A stretch of 64,000 nucleotides of DNA from Hyphomicrobiales bacterium (GCA_031393975.1 JANMWK010000098.1:38935-102934), one strand, 5' to 3'; shown: positions 2,174-21,605, counted from the stretch's first letter. Program-made: numbers and translations. The notes: generated by a model from the sequence alone, not told the origin.

Positions 2174-2490
2174 AAATTGGTGGGCTGGAAGATATTCCAC
2201 GCCAAGGCTCACGCGTGGTAAAAACTGCATCAGGCGATGTGGCCATATTTCGCAGCACCGACGATCAAGTTTTTGCACTGCATGATAAATGTCCTCACAA
2301 GGGTGGCCCGCTCAGCCAAGGCATAGTGCACGGAACCTCCGTCACCTGCCCGCTCCACAATTGGGTGATAGGGCTTGATACGGGTGAAGCCAAAGGCAAT
2401 GACAAAGGATGCACCCATAGATTTGAAATTAAACTGGTGGGTGACCGCGTGTTTCTGGATGTGAAAAACACCCTCCGTGCGGTGGCGTGA
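2173..2490 (+). pseudogene. nirD: Nitrite reductase small subunit NirD (Rieske-like), 5' truncated
   Basis: EIGGLEDIP...CPHKGGPLSQGIVHG..VTCPLHNW; no native start codon or RBS, 5' end abuts the transporter fragment. Confidence 0.8.
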
Positions 2491-4616: not shown

Positions 4617-5066
4617 CTAACAAAGCCAACGCTTCAAGCCGACTATCCGTGCGACAATGACCGAACTTAAAGAATAGTCGCCCGTTCGAATGATATCTGC
4701 GCAAATCTGTTGAAACTGCCGAATGGAGTTTTCATCATTCGAGGCACATTCTTGCTGATAAATCGGCCGACTGTGAACTTCCCCCTAAAACGAACACCAA
4801 CAGGCCAGACGTTCAGGAGTGCAGATCACATCATTAAAATCGGCTTGGAGCAAAGCTGCCAATTTTTCTGCCGGAACATCGCCCGCATCCAGCAAGGCGC
4901 TCGACCAATTTTGGCGATACTCATCGGCCATAAACAGCAAAGTTGCTGTCAAAAGTTTTTCCTTGGATTCAAAATGGAAGTTGACCAAGCCATTTGAAAC
5001 ACCGGCCTCAGCGACAATACTTTCGAGAGTCGTTTGTAAAAACCCTTTGCGTGCCAACACCCGCAT
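4617..5066 (-). pseudogene. TetR/BetI-like regulator, N-terminally truncated with a nonsense codon
   Basis: HTH TTLESIVAEAGVSNGLVNFHFESKE; TAG at 4785-4787 falls in F*GE (expected FWGE) and homology-like sequence continues (RPIYQQEC). Confidence 0.7.
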
Positions 5067-5522
5067 AGTGGGTCGATCAACTATTGTCGGCGATGATCGC
5101 GTGGATGAAGCCGCCTGCAACGGCATGAATGTCGGTGGTGAGTGTGCACTTTCAGCCGAACGAAAGTTGATTGTCGCTGACCGTATGGCGAAGATGGTGT
5201 CATGTGGACTGCCAATGGGGATACTGGGGACCCGTGAGGAGGGTTGGAAACGACAACCATCCCCTAATCGCGCGGCATTCCCCCAATCACTAAAACGCGG
5301 GCGCATTTGACGCCGATCAATGATGCCAATCGCCTTGAAGATCTATTCTAAGCTCATGACCAAACCATTGCTGCCATGCTGATTGAACCGATGTTCATTT
5401 GGTAACCCGTATGTTAGCAACAGGGCTAAATAATCCACGATCCGAAATTAAACAATGAATGTCATTAATTAAACTGTCAGCAGTCTCGCGTCATTTAAAA
5501 ACGAGGCAAAAGAGGGCCTATC

Positions 5523-6728
5523 ATGGCACATTCCGACAATTCACTCGATCCTCATCACATTGGAGCAGGTCCGCCAATGGGCGTTGTGGTGCCGCGGATG
5601 GAGTGGGACCGCGCTCCTTGGAACCGCTGGTCTTTCCAACATATTCGAGAAATTTTGCCAACAACGGAAGTGTGGCGGGGAGATCAACCCGTTCGTGAAT
5701 TCCAGCGACGGGACAAAGATATTGACACGCTAAAGGTACCAAACATCGCCGGGGAAATTGCCTCTCTTCTGGATATGTTGGAAGAAACTTACACCGACGG
5801 TTTTCTGGTTCTGCATCGGGGTGCGATTGTTTATGAGCGGTATTTTGGTGCCATGACGCCGCGCACCCTTCACCTTTCGCAATCCGTTTCAAAATCTATA
5901 GTTGGCATGACTGCTGGAATCTTAATTCATCGCGATTTGTTGAACCCAAAAAAACTGGTCTCTGATTATCTGCCTGAGCTTGCCGCAACCGCTTGGAAAG
6001 ACGCAACCGTGCAGCAGGTTCTCGATATGACCACAGGTGTTAAATTTAATGAAGATTATACTGATCCTCATTCCGATATAGGCCAACTGGATGTGGCCTC
6101 GAATTGGAAGCCTATCCCGGCTGGAACTGATCCTAATCTAAAATGGCCCACGCATGTTTGGGAACAAATATTAGGGTTGAAGCAACTCTCCCGGCTTCAT
6201 GGTGCCCAGTTTGAGTATCGTTCCATTGAAACAGATGTGTTGGCATTTTGTATGGAACGGGTAACTGGCAAGCGCCTCGGCCAAATCGTATCAGAAGAGA
6301 TATGGCAAAAACTGGGTGCTGAAGAGAGCGCATGCTTCACAATCGATCCGGCTGGCTATTCCATGGCTGATGGCGGCTTTAATGCAACGCTGCGCGATTA
6401 TGGGCGCTTTGGACAAATGGTGTTGGCCGATGGTAATAACATCGTTCCAAAAGCTTGGATTGACGAAACGCGCCGGGCCAACCACGCCATGTTTGCCCCG
6501 CCCTATACGATTGTCTTGCCAAACGGTGGCTATCACAATCAGTTTTGGGTCGAGGACCCGCATTCTCAAAACTTAATGTGCCGAGGTGTATTCGGGCAGC
6601 TGATCTATATTGATTTTGCTCACCAAATGGTTGTAGTGAAACTTTCAAGTTGGCCTGAATTTGTCAGCCCCAAAAAGATGCTAGCCACGCTGGCCGCAGT
6701 TCGGACAATTGCGGCAACTCTGCCATGA
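5523..6728 (+). CDS. Serine hydrolase (beta-lactamase fold, NylB/6-aminohexanoate-dimer hydrolase-like)
   Basis: SxxK (SVSK), FEYRS and RGVFGQ motifs; 401 aa. Confidence 0.88.
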   Translation: MAHSDNSLDPHHIGAGPPMGVVVPRMEWDRAPWNRWSFQHIREILPTTEVWRGDQPVREFQRRDKDIDTLKVPNIAGEIASLLDMLEETYTDGFLVLHRGAIVYERYFGAMTPRTLHLSQSVSKSIVGMTAGILIHRDLLNPKKLVSDYLPELAATAWKDATVQQVLDMTTGVKFNEDYTDPHSDIGQLDVASNWKPIPAGTDPNLKWPTHVWEQILGLKQLSRLHGAQFEYRSIETDVLAFCMERVTGKRLGQIVSEEIWQKLGAEESACFTIDPAGYSMADGGFNATLRDYGRFGQMVLADGNNIVPKAWIDETRRANHAMFAPPYTIVLPNGGYHNQFWVEDPHSQNLMCRGVFGQLIYIDFAHQMVVVKLSSWPEFVSPKKMLATLAAVRTIAATLP

Positions 6729-6745: not shown

Positions 6746-7456
6746 TCAGAACGATAGAGTAAGCCAGTCTTTCAGTGCTGCGATAACAGCAACAGGTTGT
6801 TCCATTGTTGTGATATGCCCAGCATTGTTAATTTCCCGCAACACACTGCGTGAAAGTTCCTTTGCCATTTGTTCATGATAGACTGGCGGGCATAGCGCAT
6901 CTTCTTCACCACACAGCAAAAGTGTGGGACCATGATAGTTGCGCAAAATTTCGGTGTGGTCTGCGCGATCACGCAAGGCCAGTGATTGTGCAATGAAAAT
7001 TTCATCGCCGAGATCAAGTGCCATGGCAATCAAGAGATCGAGCAGCGCCTGATTTTTCTGATTGGCTTTAGCAAGATAGATGGGCTTCATTTCACCGGTA
7101 ATGACTTGGCGCAACTTGCCCGCCCTCACATCTTCTATTTGTCGGTTGCGCAAAGCAAACCGCTCCGGCATGTCGGCTCGGTGATTGGTATCGAGCAACG
7201 CAAGCCTGCTCACGCGCTGGCGCGAAAAACCAACCATGCTCATGGCAACAATACCGCCCATCGAAAGACCCATGAGATTAAATGTCGGAGCCTTGACCTC
7301 ATTTAATATGCGCCTCGCCATTCCTTCTATGGAAGTAGGTCTATCCAGTAGCGGCACAATAATTTCGTATTCATTTTCGAAAGCCGAAATTTGCGGCGCG
7401 AACAATCGCTCATCACACATCATGCCCGGCAGCATGACTAACGTTTCTTTTGGCAT
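6746..7456 (-). CDS. Alpha/beta fold hydrolase
   Basis: LPGMMCD, GLSMGG nucleophile elbow, GEED and AGH; start taken at ATG 7456. Confidence 0.88.
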   Translation of the reverse strand: MPKETLVMLPGMMCDERLFAPQISAFENEYEIIVPLLDRPTSIEGMARRILNEVKAPTFNLMGLSMGGIVAMSMVGFSRQRVSRLALLDTNHRADMPERFALRNRQIEDVRAGKLRQVITGEMKPIYLAKANQKNQALLDLLIAMALDLGDEIFIAQSLALRDRADHTEILRNYHGPTLLLCGEEDALCPPVYHEQMAKELSRSVLREINNAGHITTMEQPVAVIAALKDWLTLSF

Positions 7457-7460
7457 CGGG

Positions 7461-8594
7461 TTAGGCGCGTTCGTTTGCCAATGCGGCACCTTCGGATAGT
7501 GTTTTCAGTTTGGCAAAACAGATTTCCGGATCAACCGCGCCAAATCCCGCAAAAGTGCCAAAGCCACAATCAGACCCCGCAATAACCCGGTCTTTGCCGA
7601 CGATAGAAATAAATCTTTCAAGTCTTTGGGCCACAAGTTCGGGATGTTCAACAAAGTTGGTTGTTGTATCAACAACACCGGGAACTAGAATTCGATCATC
7701 AGGAATATCGTCGCTGCGATCACGAAATGTCGCCCATTCATGACCATGGCGCGGGTTAGACGTTTCAAATAGCATATAACGCGCTTTGACTTTCATAAAC
7801 GTATTCAGAACCTTGGCCATGTCGATATCACAAACATGCGGACCCTCATAGTTGCCCCAGCAGATATGTACGCGCACTTTTTCTTGCGGAACATCCGCCA
7901 AGGCATGGTTCAACGCTTCAACATGAATGTCAGCGATTTTCACGAATTCTTCATCCGAAAGTTCTGTGAACAGCATATGGCGCGACAAGGCGAGGTCTGG
8001 GCAATCAACTTGCAAATCAAGGCCCGCATCGGTGATCGTTTTATATTCCTCGCGCATGGCGTCTGCGAGGGCCGTCAAATATTTTTCACGCGTAGCGTAA
8101 TGGGCGTTTTGCAAAAACAGAGAAATGACGCCAGGCGATGCGGCATTCATAAAGCCCCGCTCTGCTCCATTCTTTTTCATGGCGGCTTTGAGATTGGCAA
8201 TGTCTTTTTGCAGCTCATCTTGTCCGCGTGATTTGACCTCACTTGTGCACATCGGTCGGGCATATGTTGGTGTTCCACCGCCTTGCGAAAGCCGTTGCAT
8301 GAAGCTTGGAAATAGCTTGAGATCAGCCGGAGCATTGCGCGGGCTGTCACCGGAAAAACCCGTATAACGGTCCTTCACATAGGTGGCATATGAAATTTTC
8401 GATGTCTCGCCATCCGAGACAATAGAAACACCCGCTTCAACCTGCTTTCGAACAGTATCATCCACCGCAGCAGCCATCGCTTGATCAAAAGCCTTTTGAT
8501 CAAAAGCCTCCCCACGTTCTCTTGCAAACAGAAAATCAACTACTTCCTGCGAGCGCGGCAATGACCCTACATGGGTGACTGAAATCTTGGACAT
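7461..8594 (-). CDS. Cobalamin-independent methionine synthase II family / epoxyalkane:CoM-transferase-like Zn enzyme
   Basis: THVGSLPR, SDGE, HICWGNYEGPH (HxC Zn motif) and DCGFGT; single barrel, 377 aa. Confidence 0.9.
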   Translation of the reverse strand: MSKISVTHVGSLPRSQEVVDFLFARERGEAFDQKAFDQAMAAAVDDTVRKQVEAGVSIVSDGETSKISYATYVKDRYTGFSGDSPRNAPADLKLFPSFMQRLSQGGGTPTYARPMCTSEVKSRGQDELQKDIANLKAAMKKNGAERGFMNAASPGVISLFLQNAHYATREKYLTALADAMREEYKTITDAGLDLQVDCPDLALSRHMLFTELSDEEFVKIADIHVEALNHALADVPQEKVRVHICWGNYEGPHVCDIDMAKVLNTFMKVKARYMLFETSNPRHGHEWATFRDRSDDIPDDRILVPGVVDTTTNFVEHPELVAQRLERFISIVGKDRVIAGSDCGFGTFAGFGAVDPEICFAKLKTLSEGAALANERA

Positions 8595-8604
8595 AGGCAA
8601 TACC

Positions 8605-9573
8605 TCAATTCGGTTTCCAGGTGGGGCCGGCAGGATCATCCGTGTTACGAACGCGATAGAGCGAGGCTTCACCCGTCATGGATGGGAAAATCGCGTGGGC
8701 GAGATGAGGTGGAATGGCGCAAGTGTCGCCCGGTGCCAAAACTTTCTCATGGCCCGCCCATTGCAGCTTCCAATGGCCACGCATCACCATTAGAATCTCA
8801 TGGCGCTTCGTGGAATAGGCGGTTTCAGGAATAGATCCGCGCTGGATGAGGTCAATCTCAAAACCCGGTTTGTCGCGCAAAAGCGCATCTGGCCCGATCA
8901 CCTTGCAGGGAGCATTTGCAGCCAGCGCCATCATATCCCAATACCTCCCCACATGGCTCCGCACCATCGCCGAGACGGGAAGTTCGGGAAACGCTTTCAG
9001 TTCTTCATCGTTGAGCAATGGCATGGGTGGCACACCTTCGGGAAGCTGCTTGGCTTTCTTGGAATCGTAAAGTTTTCCATTCTTGCCAAGAATGAGACCA
9101 TAGCTCTTCGCATCCTCAATCACCTGTGGCGCCCAGATCACGCCACCGCCTGAATCATCGCCACCCAAGATGGCCATGATCATGCCATAGTCAGTACCAA
9201 TATTTTCAAAGGCGCGGAAAATTCCAGTCGGCAAATTGATAATGTCGCCTTCTTCCAAAACTACTTCACCCGCCTTGCCCCAGCGCCCCCAGAAAAACCG
9301 CCACCTGCCGCTGCGTACGAAAAATACTTCTGCGGTGCGGTGTGAGTGCAGTGAGTTGCGGCATTTGGGCGGCTGACCTGCTGCGCCAATATTGAACCCT
9401 GGCGTTTCTTGGATATGGACGTGTTGGTCTGATGCTTCAGAGACCCCTCCTCCGATGATGGTAAAGTTTTCCTTCTGGTCTGAACCGGGCGTGTGCGCAT
9501 CGATGAAGGCTGTTTTGCAAGGGCGCAGATCGCCGTAGCGAACAATGCGGGCTTCCATCTGGTCAGGTGTCAT
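8605..9573 (-). CDS. Bicupin protein
   Basis: LHSHRTAEVFFV..GRWRF cupin motif plus a second C-terminal cupin (HEILMVMRG..PPHLAH). Confidence 0.85.
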   Translation of the reverse strand: MTPDQMEARIVRYGDLRPCKTAFIDAHTPGSDQKENFTIIGGGVSEASDQHVHIQETPGFNIGAAGQPPKCRNSLHSHRTAEVFFVRSGRWRFFWGRWGKAGEVVLEEGDIINLPTGIFRAFENIGTDYGMIMAILGGDDSGGGVIWAPQVIEDAKSYGLILGKNGKLYDSKKAKQLPEGVPPMPLLNDEELKAFPELPVSAMVRSHVGRYWDMMALAANAPCKVIGPDALLRDKPGFEIDLIQRGSIPETAYSTKRHEILMVMRGHWKLQWAGHEKVLAPGDTCAIPPHLAHAIFPSMTGEASLYRVRNTDDPAGPTWKPN

Positions 9574-9589
9574 TTCTTAAGTCTCCCAT

Positions 9590-10354
9590 TCAACCGGCGG
9601 TCCAGCCGCCATCTACCATCAAAGCCGAGCCCGTGATCATCGCAGAAGCATCGCTCGCCAAAAACACAACGGCACCCATCACATCTTCCACCTCACCCAC
9701 GCGTGGCAGTTTGATTTTGGATTTAATCCAGGCCAGTCGTTGAGGGTTGGAAAAGGTGGGCTCTGTCATGGGTGTTCGGATAAAAGTTGGGCAAACAGTG
9801 TTTACGCGTATGGAATGTGGTCCCCATTCAATGGCCATGGCTTTGGTCATGCCTTCGACGGCGTGTTTAGAGGCCGCATAGACGCTGCGATCAACACCGC
9901 CCACATGGCCCATTTGCGAAGACACTGTGATGATCGAGCCGCCCTTGCCACTTTGCATCATTTTACGGGCTGCCTCGCGCGCTGAAAAATGTGCGGCCTT
10001 CCAATTGATCGCCATCACAGCATCGAAATCTGTTTCGGCTGTATCGAGTGCCGGAGAATGACGCGCAAAGCCTGCGGAGTTCACATAGATGTCAAGCGCG
10101 TCAAACGCAGAAACGGCGGTGGCAACGGATTTCACATCTGTGATATCGAGTTGAAGGGCCTGGGCCGAATGGCCTTTAGCTTTAAAGGCATCAACCACCT
10201 GTTCGAGTTTTTCTTGACCGCGCGCCGCACAAACGACATGTGCGCCCGCTTCCGCCAGAGCCATTGCACAGCCCAAACCAATCCCGGATGACGCGCCCAC
10301 AACAAGTGCGAGGCGACCATCAAGTCGGAACGAAGGTGTGTGTGGCAGTTTCAT
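9590..10354 (-). CDS. SDR family NAD(P)-dependent oxidoreductase (HpsO-like)
   Basis: GASSGIG, NSAG, YAASK and VDGGW; overlaps the stop of the upstream hisD-like gene by 4 nt. Confidence 0.92.
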
Positions 10355-11658
10355 GTTGCGGCCTCGCCATAAGGCACATTTCGCCCGCCATAACGGCGCA
10401 GGCGCACATTGGCTTGCTCGGCATGACCCACAAACCCTTCAAGCATGCAAAGCCTCGAACAATGCTCGCCAATCAGGGTTGACGCTTCATCGGTAAGCAC
10501 GCGTTGATAGCTATGGGTTTTGATAAATTTACCCACCCACAGCCCGCCTGTATATCGCCCGGCGCGCTTGGTCGGCAATGTGTGATTGGTGCCAATCACC
10601 TTGTCGCCATAGGCAACATTGGTGCGTGCCCCCAAGAACAGCGCACCATAATTTGTCATATTCTGCAAAAACCACTCATCGCGATTGGTCATCACTTGCA
10701 CATGTTCATAGGCCATGGCGTTCGCCTGTTCTAACATTTCTTCATAGCTATCGCAGAGGATCACTTCCCCATAATCAGCCCAAGAGAGCCTGGCGATGCC
10801 CGCTGTCGGCAGAATGGTGAGAAGCCTCTCAATTTCAGCCATCGTCTCACGAGCAAGTTTTTCCGAAGTGGTGATCAGTGCTGCAGGCGATGTTGGCCCA
10901 TGTTCTGCTTGCCCTAATAGATCAGTGGCGCAAATTTCGCCGTCCACGGTATCGTCGGCAATCACCATTGTTTCGGTGGGACCCGCAAATAAATCAATGC
11001 CAACACGGCCATAAAGCTGCCGCTTGGCTTCAGCGACAAATGCATTACCGGGACCGACGAGCATATCAACGGCTGCAATCTGTTCTGTGCCAAGCGCCAT
11101 TGCACCCACCGCTTGAATACCGCCCAAGCAATAAATTTCATCCGCGCCAGCCATATGCATGGCAGCAACAATTGCCGGATGGGGCTTTCCATTCATAGGT
11201 GGAGCTGAAGCAATCACCCTTTTCACACCAGCAACTTTGGCCGTGACAACACTCATATGGGCAGACGCCACCATCGGGTATTTACCGCCCGGCACATAGC
11301 ATCCAACCGAGTTTACCGGAATATTACGGTGGCCGAGGATCACACCGGGGAGCGTTTCCACTTCGATATCGCGCAGCGCTGCTTTCTGGTGTTGGGCAAA
11401 ATTTCGCACTTGAGTTTGGGCAAAGCGAATATCTTCCAAATCACGTTTCGTAACATGGGAAAGGGCAGTCTCAATTTCAGAATCGCTCAGCCTAAAGGTT
11501 GAGGGCGCATAATTGTCAAATTGCAGCGAGAGTTCACGCACCGCCGTATCGCCCCGCTTGACGATATCCGCCAGAATTGATTCAACTTTGGCTTTGACGC
11601 TTGCATCATCTTCTTCACGCTGCACCCTCGATATTGCGGTTTTTAAATAGCGGATCAT
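10351..11658 (-). CDS. hisD: Histidinol dehydrogenase family protein (HpsN/sulfopropanediol dehydrogenase-like paralog 1)
   Basis: [29 protein letters not shown] and GTNHTLPT; has YGDK instead of HisD GDY; catabolic, not his-operon, context. Confidence 0.88.
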
Positions 11659-12713
11659 GGGTCAACAATCCTTTGTCCCGATTGGCTATTGAACAAGTGG
11701 CAAATTTTGGATTTTATGCGGATCCCGATATTCTCGCCAATATTGGCCCTGAATTCTTTGGGCGCACGCACAGTTGCAAAACCGCCGCCTGCGCGAATTG
11801 TGACTGAGGTCACATCACCTAAAAGTTCGACACTGTAAGCTGGTCCTTTTATTTCGCCTGTCCCGTCTGAGGACAATTCAGCATCTTCTGCCCGATAACC
11901 CAATGTGACTGGGCCGGAAATTTTTGAAGAAAGACCTGAAATTGCAACTTGCTCGCAGCGAAATTTGTCGCCGGATATTTCACCAGACAATAAATTCATG
12001 GCCGGTGAACCGATAAAGCCTGCAACAAAAATATTCGCGGGGCGATCATAGATGTCAGACGGCGTACCCAATTGCTGAATCTCACCCTTGCTCATAACCA
12101 CAACACGATCTGCCAATGTCATCGCCTCCACTTGATCATGCGTGACGTAAATTGTCGTGGTCTTCAATTCATGATGTAGGTTTTTGAGTTGGGCTCGTGT
12201 GGAAATTCGCAATTTGGCATCAAGATTTGAAAGCGGCTCATCCATAAGAAACACCGACGGTTGCCGCACGATGGCACGGGCCAAAGCAACACGTTGACGC
12301 TGGCCACCCGAAAGTTCGCGCGGCCGCCGCTCGAGAAGATCACCCAGTTCAACCATGGCTGCTGCTTTCAGCACTTTGTTGCGTTGGTTTGGCGGATCAA
12401 TCTTACGCACGCGCAGTGGAAATCGGATGTTTTCATAAACCGAGAGGTTAGGATAAAGTCCATAATTCTGGAAAACCATGGCGATATCACGATCCTTGGG
12501 CTCCAGCCTATTTACTACCCGATCACCAATCCGAATCTCACCATCAGTCGGATCCTCAAGACCGGCGATCATGCGCATAGTGGTGGTTTTGCCGCAACCG
12601 GAGGGCCCCAGAAACACCATGAACTCATGATCGGCAATGCTCAGACTGATACTGTCGACGCCCGTGTGCTTTCCCCAGCGTTTTGAAATATTTTTAAGTT
12701 CAACTGTTGCCAT
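11655..12713 (-). CDS. Carbohydrate ABC transporter ATP-binding protein (MalK/UgpC-like)
   Basis: Walker [25 protein letters not shown] and a TOBE-like C-terminus. Confidence 0.95.
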
Positions 12714-12772
12714 GATTGCCACACCCTATTTCTGGCATCGATAAACCATTCATTATCAATTCTTGACACGTT

Positions 12773-12791
12773 TTGAATACGTATGCAAGAA
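12773..12791. promoter_or_regulatory. Putative LacI-family operator 1
   Basis: TTGAATACGTATGCAAGAA, identical to 14846-14864; CG-centred palindrome upstream of the ATPase-led operon. Confidence 0.7.
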
Positions 12792-12800
12792 AATGGTGAA

Positions 12801-13814
12801 TTAAGATTTTTCTTTTGGCAAGCGTGCTGATTGGCGAATGATAAGCTCAGCTGGCAATACGGCGGCACTCCTGATTACCGTTTCACGCTGAATTTGCTCC
12901 ATCAATATGCTGATCGTTGCATCAATCATTTGGCCAGAAGGTTGCCGAACCGTTGTTAGATTATACCCACCCCAACTCGCTTCTGGCACATCGTCGTAGC
13001 CAACGATCGAGATGTCATTCGGAATACGAAGCTTCAATTCATTGCGCAAAACATCCATCACTGAAAAGGCCATGTGATCATTCGCAACAAAAATAGCGTC
13101 GGGTCTTATTTTGGCTGCACAGAGTTGGCGCGTGGCTTCGGCAGCCCCTTCAAATGAATAATTGCCCACTGTGCGTGCCCAAACGGTGTGGCCACATTCT
13201 GCAAGGCCCCGGTAAAATCCGGCTTCGCGATCCCGATTGGTCGATGAATCTTCGCTGCCAGCAATAAATGCGATACGCTTATGCCCTCCTTCAACCAAAA
13301 AATGGGCAATCAACCGTCCACCCTCAATGTTGTCTGACGTCACACTGCTTGCTGGCGATGACGGCACATAGCGATTGAAGAGAACGACAGGAATTCCGGT
13401 TTGTGCACATTCCCGCGCCAAAGTGGATGACAATGCTGCTGAAGCCATGACAATGCCTTCAACTTGGTAGCCCATCATTTGTTGCACTACCAAGTCTTGG
13501 TTACCAGTATCAGTCATGAAAAGCAGAACATGAAAACCACGCTCTTGCAGGGCTCGTGACAACTGCTCAATCACAATGGGATAGAATTGATTATCAAGAT
13601 AGGCCACTAGAACGGCGATGAGCCGCGAGCGTCCACTAATCATGGCACGCGCAATAACGTTCGGACGATAACCCAGTTTACGCGCAGCTTTCAAAACCTT
13701 GGCGCGCGTATCGGCAGAGACACTGGCGTCTGCGCTGAAGGACCTGCTGACGGCCGATTGTGAAACTTGAGCCAATTTAGCAACGTCGCCTGATGTTACC
13801 TTAGCTCTTTTCAC
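12801..13814 (-). CDS. LacI family transcriptional regulator
   Basis: VTSGDVAKLAQVSQSAVSR HTH, LGYRPN hinge and VGYDD. Confidence 0.95.
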   Translation of the reverse strand: MKRAKVTSGDVAKLAQVSQSAVSRSFSADASVSADTRAKVLKAARKLGYRPNVIARAMISGRSRLIAVLVAYLDNQFYPIVIEQLSRALQERGFHVLLFMTDTGNQDLVVQQMMGYQVEGIVMASAALSSTLARECAQTGIPVVLFNRYVPSSPASSVTSDNIEGGRLIAHFLVEGGHKRIAFIAGSEDSSTNRDREAGFYRGLAECGHTVWARTVGNYSFEGAAEATRQLCAAKIRPDAIFVANDHMAFSVMDVLRNELKLRIPNDISIVGYDDVPEASWGGYNLTTVRQPSGQMIDATISILMEQIQRETVIRSAAVLPAELIIRQSARLPKEKS

Positions 13815-13835
13815 TTATTCTACCTCTTATGAATA

Positions 13836-14804
13836 TTAACCTGTATGTAAAGTGATCTGTTTCCAAATTGCAATCTCGTCATAGAGCACATATTCGCGGC
13901 GTAAACCCCAAGGGCCGAATTCCGCGTGGCTGATACCCATGATATGGACTTTTGCGCCGGTCGGTGCACCAAAGCTTCCCCACCCGTCATGTGTGCCCGT
14001 CAACGACCAGCGCAGGGCCGCGCGCGGTGAAAAGCCCGGGTCTTCGCGACCGATCTGGTGGTGAACTTCGAATTTTGCCGATGGGAAAGCAGCCCTGAGG
14101 CCTAGCCAGAACTGATCTGCATGAGGTCTGCCATGCGCATTAACGCCGCCCGGCAATCGCAAGTGACAGGCGCGGTCATATTCCGTCTCAACGGCCGCAA
14201 TATCGGCTGCCATAATCCTTGTCATCAGATCAACATAACGCTGCCCAATAGGGTTATCGTTACCCCGGCTTAAATATTCGCCTTTCACGTCTTGATCTGG
14301 GGTAAACGGCTTCCGACACTTTTCAGGCCCACCCTCAGCCATGATAACATCACGGGCATATTGCTTTGGATCACGACCAAGTTGGCGCACGTAGGCCGCA
14401 TTATCATGCACAACCCATTCGTCGTAAATTATATTTTCACGGCAAGCGCAATCGGCGATGCAATGCTGCCATAAGGTTTTGCCTGTTGGTTCACCAAGTG
14501 GACCTGCCTGCGAGTGCGGGAAAAAGGTGAACGACCGATGCGAAGATAAAAAGCCATCGTCCTCATTGCCCGACCAAATTACGTCTTCACCGAGGATTTG
14601 GATGCCTGGGGCTGCTGCCAATGCACCAAGAGTTTCGGCAATTACATTGCTAGCGCCCACCACGATGCCGTCGCCAGAGCGCTTAGGCATATTTTTTCCA
14701 TAATAGCCGTGGAGTGTATGAACATTGCGATCTTCCCAAATTTCTTTAGTAATACCTAGAATGTAATCTGGAAGATCCTTCCAACGTTTATCAAAACCTT
14801 TCAT
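13836..14804 (-). CDS. Double SnoaL/ester cyclase (NTF2-like) protein A
   Basis: RWSLTGTHDG..FGAPTG..VHIMGISH SnoaL-like motif; two-domain length; paralog of 18241..19398. Confidence 0.8.
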   Translation of the reverse strand: MKGFDKRWKDLPDYILGITKEIWEDRNVHTLHGYYGKNMPKRSGDGIVVGASNVIAETLGALAAAPGIQILGEDVIWSGNEDDGFLSSHRSFTFFPHSQAGPLGEPTGKTLWQHCIADCACRENIIYDEWVVHDNAAYVRQLGRDPKQYARDVIMAEGGPEKCRKPFTPDQDVKGEYLSRGNDNPIGQRYVDLMTRIMAADIAAVETEYDRACHLRLPGGVNAHGRPHADQFWLGLRAAFPSAKFEVHHQIGREDPGFSPRAALRWSLTGTHDGWGSFGAPTGAKVHIMGISHAEFGPWGLRREYVLYDEIAIWKQITLHTG

Positions 14805-14845
14805 ACCAAACCTCGTTTGTCAATTTCGCCCATTGTTGCCATGAC

Positions 14846-14864
14846 TTGAATACGTATGCAAGAA
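14846..14864. promoter_or_regulatory. Putative LacI-family operator 2
   Basis: TTGAATACGTATGCAAGAA in the divergent promoter region. Confidence 0.7.
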
Positions 14865-14908
14865 CCAACATAATAGAGGCTTGCCAACCAACTTAAATTA
14901 TGTTTAGT

Positions 14909-14930
14909 TTGTTGCATACGAATGCAACAA
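14909..14930. promoter_or_regulatory. Putative LacI-family operator 3
   Basis: TTGTTGCATACGAATGCAACAA, a near-perfect palindrome upstream of the solute-binding protein gene. Confidence 0.7.
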
Positions 14931-15013
14931 TCGCATCTAGCATTCTGGAAATTTAGACAAAAACATTCCTTAAGCATCGCTGGCGTCACAGTTATTGAAA
15001 CGGAGAAATAAAC

Positions 15014-16252
15014 ATGAAATTCACACTAAAAGCTTTACTTTTATTGGGCGCCGTGAGCCTGGCATCCACCGCAGCGCTAGCTGATTGTGGAATAGCATCT
15101 GGATCAGTGCGCATATTATCGAACGATTTTGAGGCGCTCAAAATTGTGGCAGCGGCAGCCGAAGAATGCGCCAGTGCCACAGTTAAGATCACCAAGAACC
15201 AAACGGCAGAGCATAAAAACCTTCAAGTCCCGGCGCTCACCTCTAATCCTGCAGAATACACCGTGGCAATGGTTGCCAACAATTCGGTTGTCCCCCTCCT
15301 GAGCGGCGGTCTCATTCGCCCGTTGGATGATTTGGTTGCAAAATACGGTAAAGACTTAGAGCCCAACCAGCTGATCAAGATTGATGGCAAGACTATGGCC
15401 ATTGCCTTCATGGCAAACTCACAACATCTATTCTATCGGAAAGATCTACTCGACAAGGCAGGCATTGCACCTCCGAAAAGCTATGAAGACGTGTTAGCTG
15501 CAGCCAAAACTCTCCAAGAAAAAGGAGTGATTAAATACCCTCTCGGTGCAGCCGACAAAGCAGGCTGGGACCTAGCCGCAGAATTTGTGAATATGTATCT
15601 CGGCTATGGCGGCGAATTCTTTGAACCAAGCTCAGCAAAGCTGGCCATCAACAATGAAAAGGGCAAAGCCACCCTCGCCACAATGTTAGCACTCACTAAA
15701 TTCATGAGCCCAGACTATTTGACCTATGGCGCCGATGAATTGAACAAGGACTACCAAGGCGGAAAAATAGCAATTTCCAACAATTGGGGTTCATTAGCAG
15801 GTGCAGCAGTTGATGCAAAAGTTGCAACTGCTGATGTTGTAGCCAACACCGTATTTGCAGGTGCGCCCACAGTTGGCGGCGGAACCACGCCGGCAGCGGC
15901 TCTGTGGTGGGATGGATTTAGCATCGCTAAAAATATTTCGGATGAAGATGCTGCAGCATCGTTCCAAGCCATGATGCATGGCATTGCGCCCGACATTGCA
16001 ACAAAGAACCCAAAGGCAGCAACTTGGTTGATCAAAGGCTATACGCCTGGGCCGACCGCAGTGGGCGTGATCCAGACTGCAGCCGCTGGCGCCAAGCCTT
16101 ATCCGATGGTGCCCTATATGGGACTGTTGCATACCGCGTTGAGCACTGGCCTTGCTGACTATATCAAAGGCTCACAGGATGCGGATAAGGCCATGGCAGG
16201 CGTCGAGGCCGCATATAATGCTGCTGCCAAAGAAGGTGGATTTCTGAAATAA
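15014..16252 (+). CDS. ABC transporter extracellular solute-binding protein (family 1)
   Basis: Signal peptide, LFYRKDLL motif, GGAG RBS; followed by two permeases. Confidence 0.92.
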   Translation: MKFTLKALLLLGAVSLASTAALADCGIASGSVRILSNDFEALKIVAAAAEECASATVKITKNQTAEHKNLQVPALTSNPAEYTVAMVANNSVVPLLSGGLIRPLDDLVAKYGKDLEPNQLIKIDGKTMAIAFMANSQHLFYRKDLLDKAGIAPPKSYEDVLAAAKTLQEKGVIKYPLGAADKAGWDLAAEFVNMYLGYGGEFFEPSSAKLAINNEKGKATLATMLALTKFMSPDYLTYGADELNKDYQGGKIAISNNWGSLAGAAVDAKVATADVVANTVFAGAPTVGGGTTPAAALWWDGFSIAKNISDEDAAASFQAMMHGIAPDIATKNPKAATWLIKGYTPGPTAVGVIQTAAAGAKPYPMVPYMGLLHTALSTGLADYIKGSQDADKAMAGVEAAYNAAAKEGGFLK

Positions 16253-16327
16253 GCCAGAAAGGGTCGGCGGCATTGATACGATAGCCGTCGACCGACTTTC
16301 AGGGTGCCGCAATTGGGGAAACCGCGC

Positions 16328-17359
16328 GTGCCACATCGCACTTTTTTAGCTTTTATTCTCCCATCGATCTTGGCGATGCTGCTTTTTATCGCCACACCAA
16401 TTGTGTCCTTCGCGGTGCAATCACTTTACATTGAACATGACAAGATTTTGGTGGTCAGTGAAACGTGTCAGCCCCTTGGTGGCTGCGTTAAGGAAACGCG
16501 TGTTGATTCTGAGGCCACGGCAAAACTGCGTCATGATCATCCGCTCGGCAAATTCAATGGTTTTGGCATCTATCAAGATCACAACCATTTAGCTTTCGCG
16601 GATATTGGCAATATCTTCGCAGGCAACTTCGGTTTTTATGAAACGGTGGCGCGCATTTATGATCTGCCGTTTTACCGCGCGCTTGTCTTCACGCTCACCT
16701 ATGCCCTCACTGTCACACCTCTGGCGATGTGTTTGGGGTTTGTGATAGCACTTGCGGTGAACGCAGTGCCGAAGCTGCTGAAAGGACCCGTAATTTTCTT
16801 TTCGCTGCTGCCCATGGTGGTCACCCCTTTGATCGGCTCGCTCGTTGTCTATTGGATGATCAACGCTGATGGAATTTTAGGTGCTGCCCTCCAGCACATT
16901 ACTCATAATCCAAATCTTTCTCTAAAGGCCTCGCCGACCATGACGTGGATCACGTTGATTTGTTATGGCGTTTGGATCAATGCGCCCTTTTCCTTCATCG
17001 TATTCTACTCTGGCCTGCAAACTGTGCCTTCTGATACAATGGAATCTGCAATGATTGACGGTGCCAGTCGTTTGCAACGTGTGCGCTTTGTTGTGCTGCC
17101 AACTTTAATGCCCTTGGCCGTATTTGTGACGCTGGTTCAACTGATGGATAATTTTCGAGTGCTTGAGCCAATCATCGGATTCAATGCCGCAGCCAACGCA
17201 ACATCATTGAGTTATAGTATCTATACAGCCCTTAACAACCAAAGTGCGCAGATGTTCAGTTCAGCGGCAGCCACATCTGTGCTCACCATCACCGGTGTGA
17301 TCATTTTGTTAACGCCAGTATTGATAAAAACCGCCCGCGAATTTGGATTTCGAACATGA
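16328..17359 (+). CDS. Carbohydrate ABC transporter permease
   Basis: Multiple TM segments and EAA loop ESAMIDGAS; GTG start at 16328 preferred (ORF extends to 16304). Confidence 0.92.
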   Translation: MPHRTFLAFILPSILAMLLFIATPIVSFAVQSLYIEHDKILVVSETCQPLGGCVKETRVDSEATAKLRHDHPLGKFNGFGIYQDHNHLAFADIGNIFAGNFGFYETVARIYDLPFYRALVFTLTYALTVTPLAMCLGFVIALAVNAVPKLLKGPVIFFSLLPMVVTPLIGSLVVYWMINADGILGAALQHITHNPNLSLKASPTMTWITLICYGVWINAPFSFIVFYSGLQTVPSDTMESAMIDGASRLQRVRFVVLPTLMPLAVFVTLVQLMDNFRVLEPIIGFNAAANATSLSYSIYTALNNQSAQMFSSAAATSVLTITGVIILLTPVLIKTAREFGFRT

Positions 17360-18237
17360 GCTCCGTTGCCCATCGCCGTCCCTTGTCGCTGGCCATCATG
17401 TCGACCGCTTTCGTATTGTTGTGGTTGGTGCTGGCTGCCTTCCCTTATATTTGGACGGTATGGGGTTCGTTCAAAGTTGAAGCCGATTTTTTCTCCCGCG
17501 AAACTTGGCAGAATGCGCTTTTCGGTGTCAAAACCGTGCAACAAACTGGTGTGCCATTCACGGGGGGAGGCTATTACGGGGCCTGGGTGGAAAGCCAATT
17601 CTGGCGCTCTGTAATCAACACCGCGATTGTCGCACTTTGTGTCACTACAATATCACTGACGCTTGGAACCTTGGGCGGCTATGCCCTTTCGCGCACTGTT
17701 CACCGCTATAAATTTTGGATTTTGATTGTGGCACTGGTATTTCGCGCAATGCCGGATATCACGTTGGTTTCAGGCTATTTGCTGCCGTTTTTCCAACTCA
17801 ACATCTGGGGCTATTTGCCCACCACCATCATCGTTCTGGTGGCCTTAAACCAGCCTTTCACTTTGTGGATGCTCTATTCGTTCTTTGTGAACATACCTAA
17901 AGAGCTTGATGAAAGTGCATTAGTGGATGGGTGTTCGCGCTTTCAAGCTTTTCGCCTAGCCGTCATGCCAGTGATGTGGCCAGGTGTGATTACCACAGGT
18001 CTTTTTAGTTTCCTTTTGGGTTACAATGATTTTGCGGTCACTTCCATGTTGCTCACGCAAGAAAATCAGACCATGATTCCTAAAATCTCAAGCTTCCTCT
18101 TCAAAATACAATCGGAAGGTCATGTGATGTACGCTGTTGCTGCGGTCGTGTCGGCGACGGCGCCTTTGTTTATCTTGATCATGTTCTTCCAGCGCCAATT
18201 GGTGGCAGGGCTCACGGCAGGTGCGGTGAAAGGGTGA
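17356..18237 (+). CDS. Carbohydrate ABC transporter permease
   Basis: ELDESALVDG and C-terminal GLTAGAVKG. Confidence 0.95.
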   Translation: MSSVAHRRPLSLAIMSTAFVLLWLVLAAFPYIWTVWGSFKVEADFFSRETWQNALFGVKTVQQTGVPFTGGGYYGAWVESQFWRSVINTAIVALCVTTISLTLGTLGGYALSRTVHRYKFWILIVALVFRAMPDITLVSGYLLPFFQLNIWGYLPTTIIVLVALNQPFTLWMLYSFFVNIPKELDESALVDGCSRFQAFRLAVMPVMWPGVITTGLFSFLLGYNDFAVTSMLLTQENQTMIPKISSFLFKIQSEGHVMYAVAAVVSATAPLFILIMFFQRQLVAGLTAGAVKG

Positions 18238-18240
18238 TCA

Positions 18241-19398
18241 ATGAAAGATGCTGATAACAAATCACAGGGCAATGTTTCGCGCATCGCTAGCAACAATGAA
18301 TCGGTGCTGCAGGTTGAGCGCCGCGACTATGTTAATTTGGCTCCGCAAGGTAGAGCCCGCGTTCAATCGATGGAAGGGTTTGATGATATTTACACCGATA
18401 TCGTCGACTATATCGTTCGTTGCACACACCGAATTTGGGACGAACGCAATATCGGGCTTATCTATTCGCATTATACGCACAACTGTGTTGTCTATGGCAC
18501 CATGGGCACTGTTTATAACCGCGAAGATATTGTCCATGACACGATCCAACGCATCGTCACCATGCCGGAGCGACGGGGCATGGCCACACATGTGATATGG
18601 AACGGCAATGATGTAGACGGGTTCTATACCTCACATCTGGTCACAGGCTCTGGTAGGCACAGCCAATCTGGCCAATATGGTGAAGCCACGGGGCGCAGCT
18701 TCACCACCCGAACAATTGCAGACTGCATGATTTTGAAAAACCGGATTTACCGCGAGTGGATTGTGGGTGATACGATGATCCTGTTCCAGCAACTTGGTCT
18801 TGATCCCCAAACCTATGCAGAAACAATGGCCAAGGTGCGCATCGAAAAGGGCCTCTCCACGTTCGACATCGGCGAGAACCGCAGGCTGCTCGGACAATAC
18901 CCGCCAGAGTCAGAGGCCGATGTTTCGATTGCCAACACTGAACTAGAAGCCACAACATTGCGCTGGTTACATGAAGCCTTCAACAAGCGGATGTTTGGCG
19001 TGATGAAAGATGTCTATGCACCTACCGTTCAATATCACGGAACCCTTTTACGTGAGATAACCGGGGCAGCCGGTGTGCTGCACCAATATCTGGGATTGAT
19101 CGGTTCAATTCCAGATGCTGCGTTCATGCCCCAGCATATCTGCTCGGCTGATTGCGAAGAAGGCGGCACCAAGGTTGCCGTGCGTTGGCTGATGGAGGGC
19201 CATCATCTGGGCTTCGGTATTCTAAAAAGTCTAGGCACCCCATCTGGCAAGCGCCTCCAGGTGATGGGCATTTCCCATTTCCATTACAAGAACGGCAAAA
19301 TCGCGGAAGAATGGACGCTTTATGATGAGATGTCGTTGCTCATGCAGGTGAAGCAGGCGCAGATGGAGAGTTCGAAGGCTTCAGCCAGATTGATTTAG
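18241..19398 (+). CDS. Double SnoaL/ester cyclase (NTF2-like) protein B
   Basis: VRWLMEGHHLG..PSGKRLQVMGISH..GKIAEEW; shares GFD..DYI..IW, VIW.GN..DGF..SH and IADC with protein A. Confidence 0.8.
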   Translation: MKDADNKSQGNVSRIASNNESVLQVERRDYVNLAPQGRARVQSMEGFDDIYTDIVDYIVRCTHRIWDERNIGLIYSHYTHNCVVYGTMGTVYNREDIVHDTIQRIVTMPERRGMATHVIWNGNDVDGFYTSHLVTGSGRHSQSGQYGEATGRSFTTRTIADCMILKNRIYREWIVGDTMILFQQLGLDPQTYAETMAKVRIEKGLSTFDIGENRRLLGQYPPESEADVSIANTELEATTLRWLHEAFNKRMFGVMKDVYAPTVQYHGTLLREITGAAGVLHQYLGLIGSIPDAAFMPQHICSADCEEGGTKVAVRWLMEGHHLGFGILKSLGTPSGKRLQVMGISHFHYKNGKIAEEWTLYDEMSLLMQVKQAQMESSKASARLI

Positions 19399-20687
19399 AC
19401 CGCCTGCATTCTGTCAAGCCGCAATTGTGCGGCGCGACGATGGCCTTCCAAACCTTCGCTGGCACTTTGCCGTGTGGCTGGCGGCGCCAAGGCTCTCACA
19501 CCACGTTCATCTATCCATTGATGCGTTGCGATTTTAACATAGGCCCCCACCCACAGACCGCCTGTGTATTTACCTGCCCCCATGGTGGGCAAAGTGTGGT
19601 TGGTGCCGCAGCATTTATCGGAATAAACAACGCTTGCTAGTTCGCCAATAAACAACGACCCATAATTGCGAACTTTAGCAGCCGTCGCATGGGAGTCTGC
19701 AGTGTGAATTTGCAGATGCTCTGCGGCAATGAAATCAGAATATTTGATCATTGTTGCTTCATCGGCACAAACGGTAATTTCACCATAATCTTTCCAAGCC
19801 TGAGCAGCCACATTGGCAGTGGAGAGGCTAATGAGCTGGCGGTTGATTTCAACCAAGGTCGCCTCAGCAAGTTTGGCATCTGTGGTGATTAGTCCCACGC
19901 GCGTGCGCACATCGTGTTCAGCCTGCGCCAGCAAATCCGTTGCAATCATTTCAGCATCGCCTGTGGCATCGGCCAACACGAAAATTTCTGAAGGCCCCGC
20001 CAGTTGGTCGATACCAACGGGCCCAAAGACTTGTCGCTTGGCCTCGTTGACAAAGGCATTGCCCGGGCCAACAATTTTGGTGACAGCAGGAACTGTTTCA
20101 GTTCCAAAAGCCATGGCGGCAATGGCCTGGGCACCCCCGATGCGGAATATCCGATCAGCACCAGAAAGATGACACCCCGCTATCATTGCAGGGTGGGCAT
20201 TGGGTGGCAAACACGCCACAATTTCATCAACCCCCGCAACTTTAGCCGGAACAATTGTCATCACTGGAGCGGACAATAGCGGATAGCGTCCACCGGGAAC
20301 ATAGCAACCCACCCGCTCAATCGGGATCACGCGGTGGCCCAAGTGAACACCCGGAAGTATCTCCGCCTCCAGCGGCAAAATGGTGGCAAGCTGTGCCTTG
20401 GCAAAATTGCGCACATTATCGATTGCAAATTCAGTGTCTTTGCGGGTTTGCGGGTCCAGCATGTTCAGTGCCGCCTCACGGTCTTTGGTGCTAACTTCAA
20501 ACTCAGTCAGTTCGGATTTATCAAAGCGCAACGCGTACTTTCGAATTGCAGCATCGCCCCGTTTGCGCACGTTCGCTAGAACTTCAGCAACCAGTGTGGC
20601 AACAGAAGTGTTGTCATCACTTTGATTGAACGTAGGAGCTTTTACAAAACGGACATTCGGAAAAGATGCATTTACAGATGAAACCAC
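19395..20687 (-). CDS. hisD: Histidinol dehydrogenase family protein (HpsN-like paralog 2)
   Basis: GCYVPGG, GPGNAFVNEAK, AGPSE, QAEH, EHL and [14 protein letters not shown]. Confidence 0.88.
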   Translation of the reverse strand: MVSSVNASFPNVRFVKAPTFNQSDDNTSVATLVAEVLANVRKRGDAAIRKYALRFDKSELTEFEVSTKDREAALNMLDPQTRKDTEFAIDNVRNFAKAQLATILPLEAEILPGVHLGHRVIPIERVGCYVPGGRYPLLSAPVMTIVPAKVAGVDEIVACLPPNAHPAMIAGCHLSGADRIFRIGGAQAIAAMAFGTETVPAVTKIVGPGNAFVNEAKRQVFGPVGIDQLAGPSEIFVLADATGDAEMIATDLLAQAEHDVRTRVGLITTDAKLAEATLVEINRQLISLSTANVAAQAWKDYGEITVCADEATMIKYSDFIAAEHLQIHTADSHATAAKVRNYGSLFIGELASVVYSDKCCGTNHTLPTMGAGKYTGGLWVGAYVKIATHQWIDERGVRALAPPATRQSASEGLEGHRRAAQLRLDRMQAV

Positions 20688-20824: not shown

Positions 20825-20843
20825 TTCTTGCATACGCAGTCAA
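20825..20843. promoter_or_regulatory. Putative LacI-family operator 4
   Basis: Reverse complement TTGACTGCGTATGCAAGAA matches operators 1 and 2 at 17/19; upstream of hisD-like paralog 2. Confidence 0.6.
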
Positions 20844-21427: not shown

Positions 21428-21502
21428 TGGTGATCCCTGCGGGAGTCGAACCCGCCTTTACAACGTGAGAGGCTGTCGTCCTAACCGATAGACGAAGGGA
21501 CC
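21428..21502 (-). tRNA. tRNA-Glu (anticodon CTC)
   Basis: GGTCCCT...AGGGATC-A-CCA acceptor stem, anticodon arm ACAGC-CTCTCAC-GTTGT and GGTTCGACTCC T-arm; 75 nt. Confidence 0.95.
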
Positions 21503-21503
21503 T

Positions 21504-21605
21504 AAACGATTTGTCTTCAAATCGTCCTCAAGCGGTTTTCCTTAAAACCGCCTCTAAACGATTTGTCTTAAAATCGTCTTTTAACGGTTTTTCTTAAAAC
21601 CGTCC
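21504..21605 (-). repeat. Tandem array of four 24-nt hairpins with 26-nt period, 5' of tRNA-Glu
   Basis: Units start at 21504, 21530, 21556 and 21582; 9-10 bp stems with AAGA/AAGG loops on the minus strand. Confidence 0.85.

Follow-up and report, generated by a model that had tools for sequence, protein, structure and literature searches.

The closest described relatives of the system reported here belong to sulfonate catabolism and histidine biosynthesis. HpsN, the (R)-dihydroxypropanesulfonate (DHPS) 3-dehydrogenase with solved structures 8v35 and 8wwe, has the fold of L-histidinol dehydrogenase (HisD), is defined by the motif G-R-Y-A/S-H, and binds the sulfonate with His126 and Lys353 (PMC11382572). 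In the hps system, the gene of a short-chain dehydrogenase/reductase (SDR) directly follows that of the dehydrogenase, and the genes are under LacI control (PMC11131964). An HpsN ortholog in Bilophila, encoded with the partners cuyABC, oxidizes the amino alcohol L-cysteinolate and has sulfonate-binding residues identical to those of HpsN (PMC12814064). Here we describe a locus of comparable design at positions 6,746 to 20,687 of a 64,000-nucleotide stretch (hereafter, the window) from a Hyphomicrobiales bacterium (GCA_031393975.1 JANMWK010000098.1:38935-102934). Its 13 genes (Table 1) include two HisD-like dehydrogenases, HisD1 and HisD2. On sequence evidence, we lean slightly towards reading them as a LacI-repressed system for the uptake and breakdown of mycosporines, in a version likely tuned to mycosporine-glutamicol and mycosporine-glutaminol.

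A LacI-controlled catabolic operon with an ATP-binding cassette (ABC) importer and HpsN-like chemistry is a known design, but the enzyme set and both dehydrogenase clades are, as far as we searched, undescribed. No description of the cluster or of mycosporine-catabolic genes was found in a literature search that took in few subscription papers and no supplements, and queries combining hisD with an ester cyclase and a cupin, hisD with SnoaL catabolism, or dihydroxybutanoate, malate and hisD returned nothing; PMC13759103 and PMC6165330 yielded nothing on the cluster either. An earlier reading of the DNA alone (the original prediction) had proposed an undescribed, co-regulated catabolic system; a shared operator-like motif, conserved co-occurrence of the genes and the lack of a matching paper all agree with that proposal.

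Two HisD-like dehydrogenases outside the HisD and HpsN clades

HisD1 and HisD2 are 45% identical to one another, 42-47% identical to three HpsN-type proteins and 33-40% identical to HisD, and their best PDB matches are the HpsN structures 8v35 and 8wwe, respectively. Both score well above the cut-off of the HisD model TIGR00069 (442 and 447 bits against 243.8), so that databases label both hisD. As had been predicted, there are no his genes nearby; a canonical-type hisD lies elsewhere in the genome (contig C127), and its product is 33-34% identical to both paralogs. The motifs GDKVIGTNH and SDKCCGTNH are present as reported, as are GKYPM and GRYPL where HpsN-type proteins have GRYSH or GRYAH, and GLWVG where they have GLSVH. 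The original prediction also took the DK of these motifs as a distinguishing mark, which holds against HisD, where the residues are DY; because DK is common to HpsN as well, it does not set the paralogs apart from that enzyme.

The His126 motif is missing in every HisD1 and HisD2 row of our alignment and present in 3/3 HpsN-type references. Both paralogs nevertheless keep Lys353, the Zn ligands (Gln248, His251, Asp352 and the C-terminal His, His411* in HpsN numbering) and the catalytic Glu318-His319 pair, along with the QAEH, EH and DK motifs, residue roles being taken from PMC11382572. Since Lys353 is retained, the sequences suggest an anionic group where HpsN holds the sulfonate, most simply a carboxylate.

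An LG+G4 tree of 30 rows, taken from the 66 rows of a quick tree, resolved four clades: canonical HisD (99.9/100), HpsN-type (100/100), HisD1 (99.4/100), and HisD2 with a Priestia protein (98.3/100); one Deinococcus protein was left unplaced. Both paralogs therefore fall outside the HpsN and HisD clades in this tree, whose three HpsN-type references were assigned by gene context and motif and do not include the two characterized HpsN sequences. The quick and 30-row trees agree on the four clades and differ in their order, and so we claim no order of origin. The two HisD-family clades were found in 127 and 36 of 389 plasmid records at a threshold of at least 60%. Whatever the substrate proves to be, these two widespread "hisD" clades are probably misannotated; simple NAD+ assays could name both.

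A shared operator-like motif and a conserved gene neighborhood

A 16-bp palindrome with the consensus TTGCATACGTATGCAA (derived from the window) occurs four times in the window, against a mean of 0.21 and a maximum of 2 in shuffled sequences, and precedes each transcription unit, including one copy before HisD2. With a matrix built from 140 palindrome sites of other loci, the four window sites are the four best in the 3.1-Mb genome, although the fourth (20828) leads only narrowly: it scores 15.2, and no site outside the cluster exceeds 14.7. The motif was found in 65/72 loci with HisD2 beside a cupin or SnoaL gene, in 0/8 HisD2 loci with neither, and in 0/13 plasmid loci with HisD-family genes in other contexts. 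It is also present in the Deinococcus and Priestia clusters and in 17 of 42 longer metagenome loci. The 13 genes are thus likely to form one motif-linked regulon, with the LacI-family protein the likely binder of the palindrome. Promoter and terminator scans performed at chance (20 against 16 +/- 4.4), and for this reason we make no use of the fact that two operator sites overlap -35-like hexamers.

Clusters with the same core are annotated in Roseibium, Novosphingobium, Pantoea, Deinococcus, Priestia and Ruegeria, giving a range of Alpha- and Gammaproteobacteria, Deinococcus and Priestia. The transporter varies among these examples, being of the ABC, major facilitator superfamily, tripartite ATP-independent periplasmic (TRAP) or TonB-dependent kind. 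Of 400 genomes drawn across the phylum, 26 matched the cupin profile, as did 16/28 in one family; among 72,556 plasmid records, the cupin found 54 matches and SnoaL 2 found 55. Close to this organism the cluster is patchy, as a close ortholog of the MetE-like gene is present in only 3 of 36 same-genus genomes. We examined 29 regions around cupin hits from the 400-genome draw, some of them cut by contig ends; the counts are descriptive, as kin are not independent. HisD1 was found in 20 of these regions, HisD2 in 1, an aldolase in 22, a hydrolase or MetE-like gene in 23, an amidohydrolase-family gene in 8, and one to five SnoaL paralogs in 23. Two unrelated aldolase folds, of the RraA and HpcH types, occupy the same slot across relatives, and the SDR gene lies next to that of HisD1 in the majority of clusters and also where the context is unrelated. 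Co-occurrence of the cluster genes is thus conserved across genomes. Also as predicted, SnoaL, cupin and MetE-like genes are all missing from the three hps-type loci that we fetched, as are the hydrolase and CUT1 genes. To judge by gene content, a variable SnoaL head and a constant tail around the cupin fit compounds with one core and changing N-substituents.

The original prediction placed two dehydrogenases acting on one solute at the center of the system. This part did not hold, given the counts of HisD1 and HisD2 above and the different company that the two keep outside the cluster: HisD1 and the SDR are core, and HisD2 is accessory, not part of a fixed pair. Among 80 loci anchored on HisD2, 54 hold both paralogs and 48 hold HisD1 and the cupin as well; of these 48, 47 have an amidase, 44 an aldolase and 26 a MetE-like gene. 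A SnoaL 2 ortholog (63-70%) was present in 10/10 genomes with cluster-type HisD2 whose fetched locus had not shown SnoaL 2, and in 0/5 genomes with HisD2 in other contexts. In the three such contexts that we examined, the neighbors of HisD2 are peptidases in one, class III aminotransferases in another, and an amino-acid transporter and a caprolactamase-like, ATP-dependent lactam hydrolase in the third. In one cluster of the same genus, the amidase and SnoaL 2 are followed by a choline-dehydrogenase-like GMC gene, and no HisD2 was seen in 40 kb. The HisD2 contexts and this GMC gene alike suggest an amino alcohol that carries an amide or lactam. HisD1 was found in six other contexts, four with the SDR (beside an HpcH aldolase and TRAP carrier, an acetoacetate-CoA ligase, an FAH-family hydrolase, or LacI alone) and two without it (beside a thiamine diphosphate (ThDP) enzyme, or a transhydrogenase and acetate-CoA ligase), a pattern expected of a small shared intermediate.

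Two of these outside loci may be recorded in their own right. On Rhizobium leguminosarum pPR4 (L209 1-10299), HisD2 stands with a caprolactamase-like two-subunit lactam hydrolase and an amino-acid ABC carrier, a candidate for pyroglutaminol catabolism. In Paracoccus methylovorus (L216 7094-16095), a ThDP enzyme, HisD1, a sugar ABC importer and a GMC oxidase occur without the SDR, and we speculate that this set could cleave a deoxy-diketo sugar to 3,4-dihydroxybutanoate.

The remaining enzymes

The bicupin (model predicted local distance difference test (pLDDT) score 83.6) has H76, H78, E82 and Arg120 each conserved in 96/97 sequences, and H53, conserved in 88/97, may substitute for the motif-2 His that is missing from the 3-His or 3-His-1-Glu metal site of ring-cleaving cupin dioxygenases. 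Its best fold matches are salicylate/gentisate and quercetin dioxygenases (Z 17-18.5; for 2phd, Z 18.5 with a root-mean-square deviation of 3.2 over 233 aligned residues), with vicilins close at 16.6, and in a protein atlas, which does not contain the SnoaL sequences, its homolog falls only in unnamed cupin clusters. We rate a dioxygenase role as probable.

SnoaL 1 and SnoaL 2 are 30% identical over 335 columns. The SnoaL 2 model (pLDDT 93.2) consists of two NTF2 domains with conserved polar residues S131, H132, E172, D177, R315, H346, E357 and D362, and 569 representatives of its family score E 1e-10 or lower. Described members of the fold act as aldol cyclases, epoxide hydrolases or dehydratases; among the top fold matches of SnoaL 2 (Z 12-14.5, at most about 22% identity) none stands out, the best reaching Z 14.5. 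The hydrolase triad is conserved (Ser 63/63, Asp 60/63, His 62/63). In Devosia (L012, L013, L028, L057, L082), the hydrolase ortholog lies in an open frame of 645-716 aa in 5/5 cases tested, which we read as a hydrolase-SnoaL 2 fusion; in a representative of 634 aa (P0122), SnoaL 2 lies towards the C terminus. Three loci also have a Zn alcohol dehydrogenase next to the Devosia frame.

The MetE-like protein can be compared with the core methionine synthases MesA-MesD (PMC7857596), from which we take the residue roles. As in those enzymes, there is a catalytic domain only, and the Zn ligands (H269, C271, E303 and C369) and the likely homocysteine positions (S37, E89 and D223, assigned by motif and not by structure) are each kept in 56/56 sequences. 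It differs in that its match to MesD (3rpd) is weak (E 3e-5), it falls below all NCBIfam cut-offs (best 87.5 bits against 406), the cluster holds no MesX or corrinoid partner, and the gene sits inside a catabolic operon.

The SDR has Y159 and K163, and Arg45 suggests NADP(H). A Gln seemingly shared with HpsO by residue number was rejected as a common feature, since alignment puts it one position off. The best PDB match of the binding protein is SmoF (E 8e-11, residues 120-312 only), among weak matches to acarbose-, sorbitol- and sulfoquinovosyl-binding proteins.

A proposed pathway for mycosporine breakdown

Mycosporines are UV sunscreens made by algae, cyanobacteria, fungi and lichens. They are built on 4-deoxygadusol, a 2-methoxy-1,3-dione whose tertiary alcohol carries a CH2OH group. 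Among kinds of substrate a cyclic polyhydroxylated solute is favored, and mycosporines fit because they combine a methylated, hydroxylated core and changing N-substituents with presence in the sea, soil, leaves and streams. From gene content we consider that the substrate probably belongs to this family. Mycosporines with glutamicol or glutaminol were first described in terrestrial fungi (PMC3083659), and both have been measured in the lichen Dermatocarpon luridum (PMC6471344). Hydrolysis of mycosporine-glutaminol yields glutaminol and glutamicol along with 4-deoxygadusol, and glutamicol forms are found as cyclic amides (PMC4665425). A sentence in PMC3083659 on Dunlap and Shick, the one account of bacterial substituent removal known to us, has Vibrio harveyi suggested to hydrolyze the amino-acid substituents off shinorine and porphyra-334. 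In line with this, a Vibrio pelagius plasmid (L113 3541-20143) has a transporter and four SnoaL-family genes, next to which lie purU and a sarcosine oxidase operon; its 37 kb contain no dehydrogenase or cupin gene.

In the proposed scheme, the ABC system would import the mycosporine, and the SnoaL proteins would hydrolyze the ring C-N bond to yield 4-deoxygadusol and an amine, with one paralog per kind of substituent. HisD2 would then oxidize the freed L-amino alcohol, glutamicol or glutaminol, to glutamate or glutamine, much as HisD treats histidinol, and in relatives the amidase would open the amide or lactam. Given a mycosporine substrate, we consider this role of HisD2 likely; the Bilophila HpsN offers a parallel, being a HisD-family enzyme recruited to catabolize a non-histidine 2-amino alcohol (PMC12814064). 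The cupin would split the C2=C3 enol bond with O2 to form a methyl ester of 4-hydroxy-4-(hydroxymethyl)-2-oxoadipate, from which the hydrolase would free methanol or the MetE-like enzyme would pass the methyl group to homocysteine. A class II pyruvate aldolase, of the RraA or HpcH type in relatives and here perhaps an unlinked HpcH on contig C75, would release pyruvate and 4-hydroxy-3-oxobutanoate. Finally, the SDR would reduce the latter to 3,4-dihydroxybutanoate, which corresponds to DHPS with the sulfonate replaced by a carboxylate; oxidation of this compound by HisD1 would give malate, likely the L form and the twin of sulfolactate. On the same assumption of substrate, we rate this last step as likely as that of HisD2. 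The scheme would give every core gene a job and mirror the HpsO/HpsN pair (PMC11131964).

Several observations weigh against this scheme. There is no aldolase or amidase among the 13 genes, and close orthologs were absent from the 89%-complete genome, where we found no RraA match, HpcH proteins at 35-37% and amidases at 28-46%. Several Aestuariivirga relatives also have no aldolase, as do 7/29 regions; among five aldolase-less genomes tested, a cluster-type RraA lies elsewhere in one, and RraA-family matches occur in two of five further genomes. The present copy may rely on housekeeping enzymes, secrete the ring-opened acid as an end point, or follow another order of steps. In the cupin, Arg120 stands where the last metal His would normally be, and its fold matches fail to tell dioxygenases from non-enzymes. 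Nothing among the SnoaL fold matches suggests C-N hydrolysis, and the SDR, with its conserved Gln displaced as noted above, shares no more than 35% identity with two HpsO-type SDRs. N-methyltryptophan/sarcosine-oxidase-like genes, for which the scheme has no need, occur in five distant loci and in Roseomonas; fungal mycosporines are frequently glucosides, yet no recurrent glycosidase was found near the clusters. In Priestia the SDR is present, but the only HisD-like enzyme within 15 kb belongs to the HisD2 clade, and one locus (L016) has HisD1, HisD2, the SDR, HpcH and the amidase with no SnoaL or cupin gene in view. HisD2 also tracks habitat poorly, being carried by seven Roseibium/Labrenzia plasmid records, several of them marine.

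The broadest reading of the cluster we put forward only tentatively. It could be a missing microbial sink for mycosporines, modular, frequent in a single large alphaproteobacterial family, and extending to Deinococcus and Bacillota. The tandem NTF2 proteins would then be a new class of enaminone/imine C-N hydrolases, the Arg-substituted cupin would open the gadusol ring, and the MetE-like enzyme would need neither folate nor B12 to make methionine directly from the methyl ester of a substrate. Of the two misannotated "hisD" clades, one would be the carboxylate counterpart of HpsN, turning 3,4-dihydroxybutanoate into malate, and the other a glutamicol/glutaminol dehydrogenase that widens the pathway to fungal and lichen sunscreens. 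If so, the cluster would supply marker genes and purifiable enzymes for the flux of mycosporine breakdown, and the MetE-like enzyme would show from what compound a core methionine synthase can take its methyl group directly, a point that PMC7857596 leaves open for such enzymes.

Alternative substrates and routes

Of the alternatives, the one that fares best, though we think it unlikely, is that the substrates are other N-substituted cyclitols or sugar-amino-acid conjugates (aminocyclitols of the valienamine kind, Amadori or opine-like compounds) broken down to pyruvate and a small dihydroxy acid. The sugar-type binding protein with its weak matches, the monomeric amine-oxidase-like and IolN-like genes of distant clusters, and the occurrence of the cluster in rhizobia and leaf bacteria would all suit such compounds. 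A methyl-handling enzyme in 23/29 regions and a cupin in 16/28 genomes of one family, however, call for an abundant methylated compound, and the Amadori and opine genes known to us were not seen in annotated clusters.

Distant clusters (L219, L236, L246, L264, L280, L291) add an Ldh_2-family dehydrogenase, whose best model is L-sulfolactate dehydrogenase below its cut-off, an IolN-like ring hydrolase and an SMP-30 lactonase. In five distant loci, the best model of a creatininase-family protein is a diketo-inositol ring hydrolase (172 bits, cut-off 245), which we count in favor of the mycosporine scheme. Short clusters in regions G244a, G331, G311a, G426 and G455 consist of the cupin and aldolase, often with the hydrolase, plus a different ABC or TRAP carrier and no or one SnoaL gene, which would fit uptake of an amine-free core (gadusol or deoxygadusol).

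In the lower pathway of gallate and protocatechuate 4,5-cleavage, the HMG/CHA aldolase LigK/GalC, of the RraA fold or another class II aldolase, frees pyruvate from a 4-hydroxy-2-oxo acid. Our scheme resembles this route in that step, in the release of pyruvate after ring cleavage and in methyl-ester handling. It is conceivable, though improbable, that the same substrates take another ring route, in which HisD1 oxidizes the ring CH2OH before C-C cleavage, leading to 4-carboxy-4-hydroxy-2-oxoadipate and on to pyruvate and oxaloacetate, or to citrate if C2 is lost; in a variant, SnoaL would dehydrate the ring to a methylgallyl-type aromatic for a gallate-like pathway. RraA-type HMG/CHA aldolases act on the tertiary alcohol of such 4-carboxy-4-hydroxy acids, and the cluster RraA keeps the WG-E and RD motifs in 54/54 sequences. 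Amidohydrolase-family genes in 8/29 regions, the retention of HisD1 in aldolase-less copies (this one included), and the presence of dehydratases among NTF2 folds also speak for such a route. It would, however, leave the SDR jobless although its gene neighbors that of HisD1 both in unrelated contexts and in the majority of clusters, and the minimal clusters have no hydratase, tautomerase or LigAB/GalA-type dioxygenase, nor LigJ/GalB or LigU/GalD. Further differences from the gallate and protocatechuate systems are that the cluster RraA only distantly matches solved RraA (best E 6e-8) and that the aldolase is absent from the window.

More doubtful still is a single small heterocycle or polyol with two primary alcohols, oxidized twice, once by each paralog. 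Both paralogs do occur together in 54/80 HisD2-anchored loci and share the operator motif, but the unbiased draw returned HisD2 in just one of 29 regions, the clades and outside contexts are separate, and the GMC gene follows SnoaL 2 in the same-genus cluster where no HisD2 was seen. Least probable is an organosulfonate pathway akin to the catabolism of DHPS, cysteinolate or sulfoquinovose, of the kind that the original prediction had entertained: HpsN is the closest solved relative of both paralogs and SmoF the best, though weak, match of the binding protein, but the paralogs form clades separate from the HpsN-type references and none carries the His126 motif that all three of those have, the 13 genes include no hpsP-like or sulfolyase gene, and hpsP, suyAB, cuyA and xsc were not seen in annotated clusters.

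Gene inventory and flanking DNA

The cluster had been described as 12 intact genes. Its intactness stands, with no interrupted open reading frame (ORF) from 6746 to 20687, and the count rises to 13; the gene kinds named were all present, Pfam and NCBIfam assignments agreeing. A leftward block runs from SnoaL 1 to the hydrolase, and a rightward block from the divergent promoter holds the binding protein, both permeases and SnoaL 2. HisD2 meets SnoaL 2 tail to tail with overlapping stop codons.

Table 1. Genes and operator-like sites of the cluster, in window coordinates; functions given as predicted rest on the proposed scheme.
Feature	Position	Strand	Basis
Alpha/beta hydrolase, Ser76-Asp197-His225 triad, predicted methyl esterase	6746..7489	-	Pfam; PDB 4uhh esterase E 1e-22
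Core (folate-domain-less) methionine-synthase-like Zn thiol methyltransferase, predicted to pass substrate methyl to homocysteine	7461..8672	-	PF01717
Bicupin, predicted ring-cleaving enzyme, H76-H78-E82 metal site in first barrel	8605..9573	-	Pfam, model
Classical SDR, predicted 4-hydroxy-3-oxobutanoate reductase	9590..10354	-	Pfam, NCBIfam, Y159 and K163
HisD-like 1 (HisD1, core clade), predicted 3,4-dihydroxybutanoate to malate dehydrogenase	10351..11658	-	PDB HpsN 8v35, tree
CUT1-type ABC ATPase	11655..12722	-	Pfam; NCBIfam UgpC subfamily model above cut-off
Palindromic operator-like site preceding ATPase-to-hydrolase unit	12773..12788		Motif scan, matrix score
LacI-family repressor	12801..13814	-	Pfam, NCBIfam
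Tandem SnoaL/NTF2-like protein 1, predicted C-N (enaminone/imine) hydrolase	13836..14804	-	Pfam
Operator-like site, divergent promoter, first	14846..14861		Motif scan
Operator-like site, divergent promoter, second	14912..14927		Motif scan
Family-1 solute-binding protein, without close solved relative	15014..16252	+	Pfam; PDB SmoF E 8e-11
ABC permease 1	16304..17359	+	Pfam, NCBIfam
ABC permease 2	17356..18237	+	Pfam, NCBIfam
Tandem SnoaL/NTF2-like protein 2, predicted glutamicol/glutaminol release	18241..19398	+	Model, tie to HisD-like 2
HisD-like 2 (HisD2, accessory clade), predicted L-2-amino-alcohol (glutamicol/glutaminol) dehydrogenase	19395..20687	-	PDB HpsN 8wwe, tree
Weaker operator-like site 141 bp before HisD-like 2	20828..20843		Motif scan; matrix score fourth in genome

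The GC content is 50.5% here and 50.3% in the genome. By HisD2, the closest relatives are metagenome-assembled genomes labeled Hyphomicrobiales and Aestuariivirga. The DNA was found in six metagenome runs (freshwater sediment, sediment or unspecified) from two studies, two of the runs possibly being its source; no RNA data set was listed with them. Compared with contigs of four public runs from two studies, neither the left flank nor the cluster has an insertion or deletion, and the only indel row is at 20856.

The neighboring DNA had been called decayed. This is true of the nitrate-assimilation genes at about 1.7-4.5 kb, which are in pieces (three nasA/nasC-like fragments and one partial NarK) in a region, 328-4539, that also contains NirD and kinase- and phosphatase-like pieces. 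It is not true of the adjoining gene at 5523-6728, an intact beta-lactamase-family hydrolase that we presume to be like the 6-aminohexanoate-dimer hydrolase, so that intactness does not end exactly at the cluster edge. Divergent from this gene, within 4785-6728, is a truncated-looking BetI-like TetR that matches only positions 16-109 of the 189-position BetI model; the pair is not conserved beside the cluster. We considered the hydrolase as a stand-in amidase and rejected it: there is no operator-like site near it, it is also not beside the cluster in same-genus genome G031, and only one match, at 28%, was found in 85 loci.

On the other side, a tRNA-Glu(CTC) gene at 21428-21502 (-) points towards the cluster, just downstream of two imperfect direct copies of a hairpin-like unit (about 21510-21600), and a PAP2-like gene at 21.6-22.8 kb appears split. 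Cluster genes adjoin tRNA-Glu(CTC) in 2 other loci of 10 scanned (L108 276-350; L008 1650-1724), with differing gene orders, and this suggests that insertion has happened more than once at the same site. A search of the contig for attachment-site repeats of the tRNA gene found none. Farther to the right, at 28289-29809 (+), lies a gene for a Thr-rich repeat protein of 506 aa that is probably secreted.

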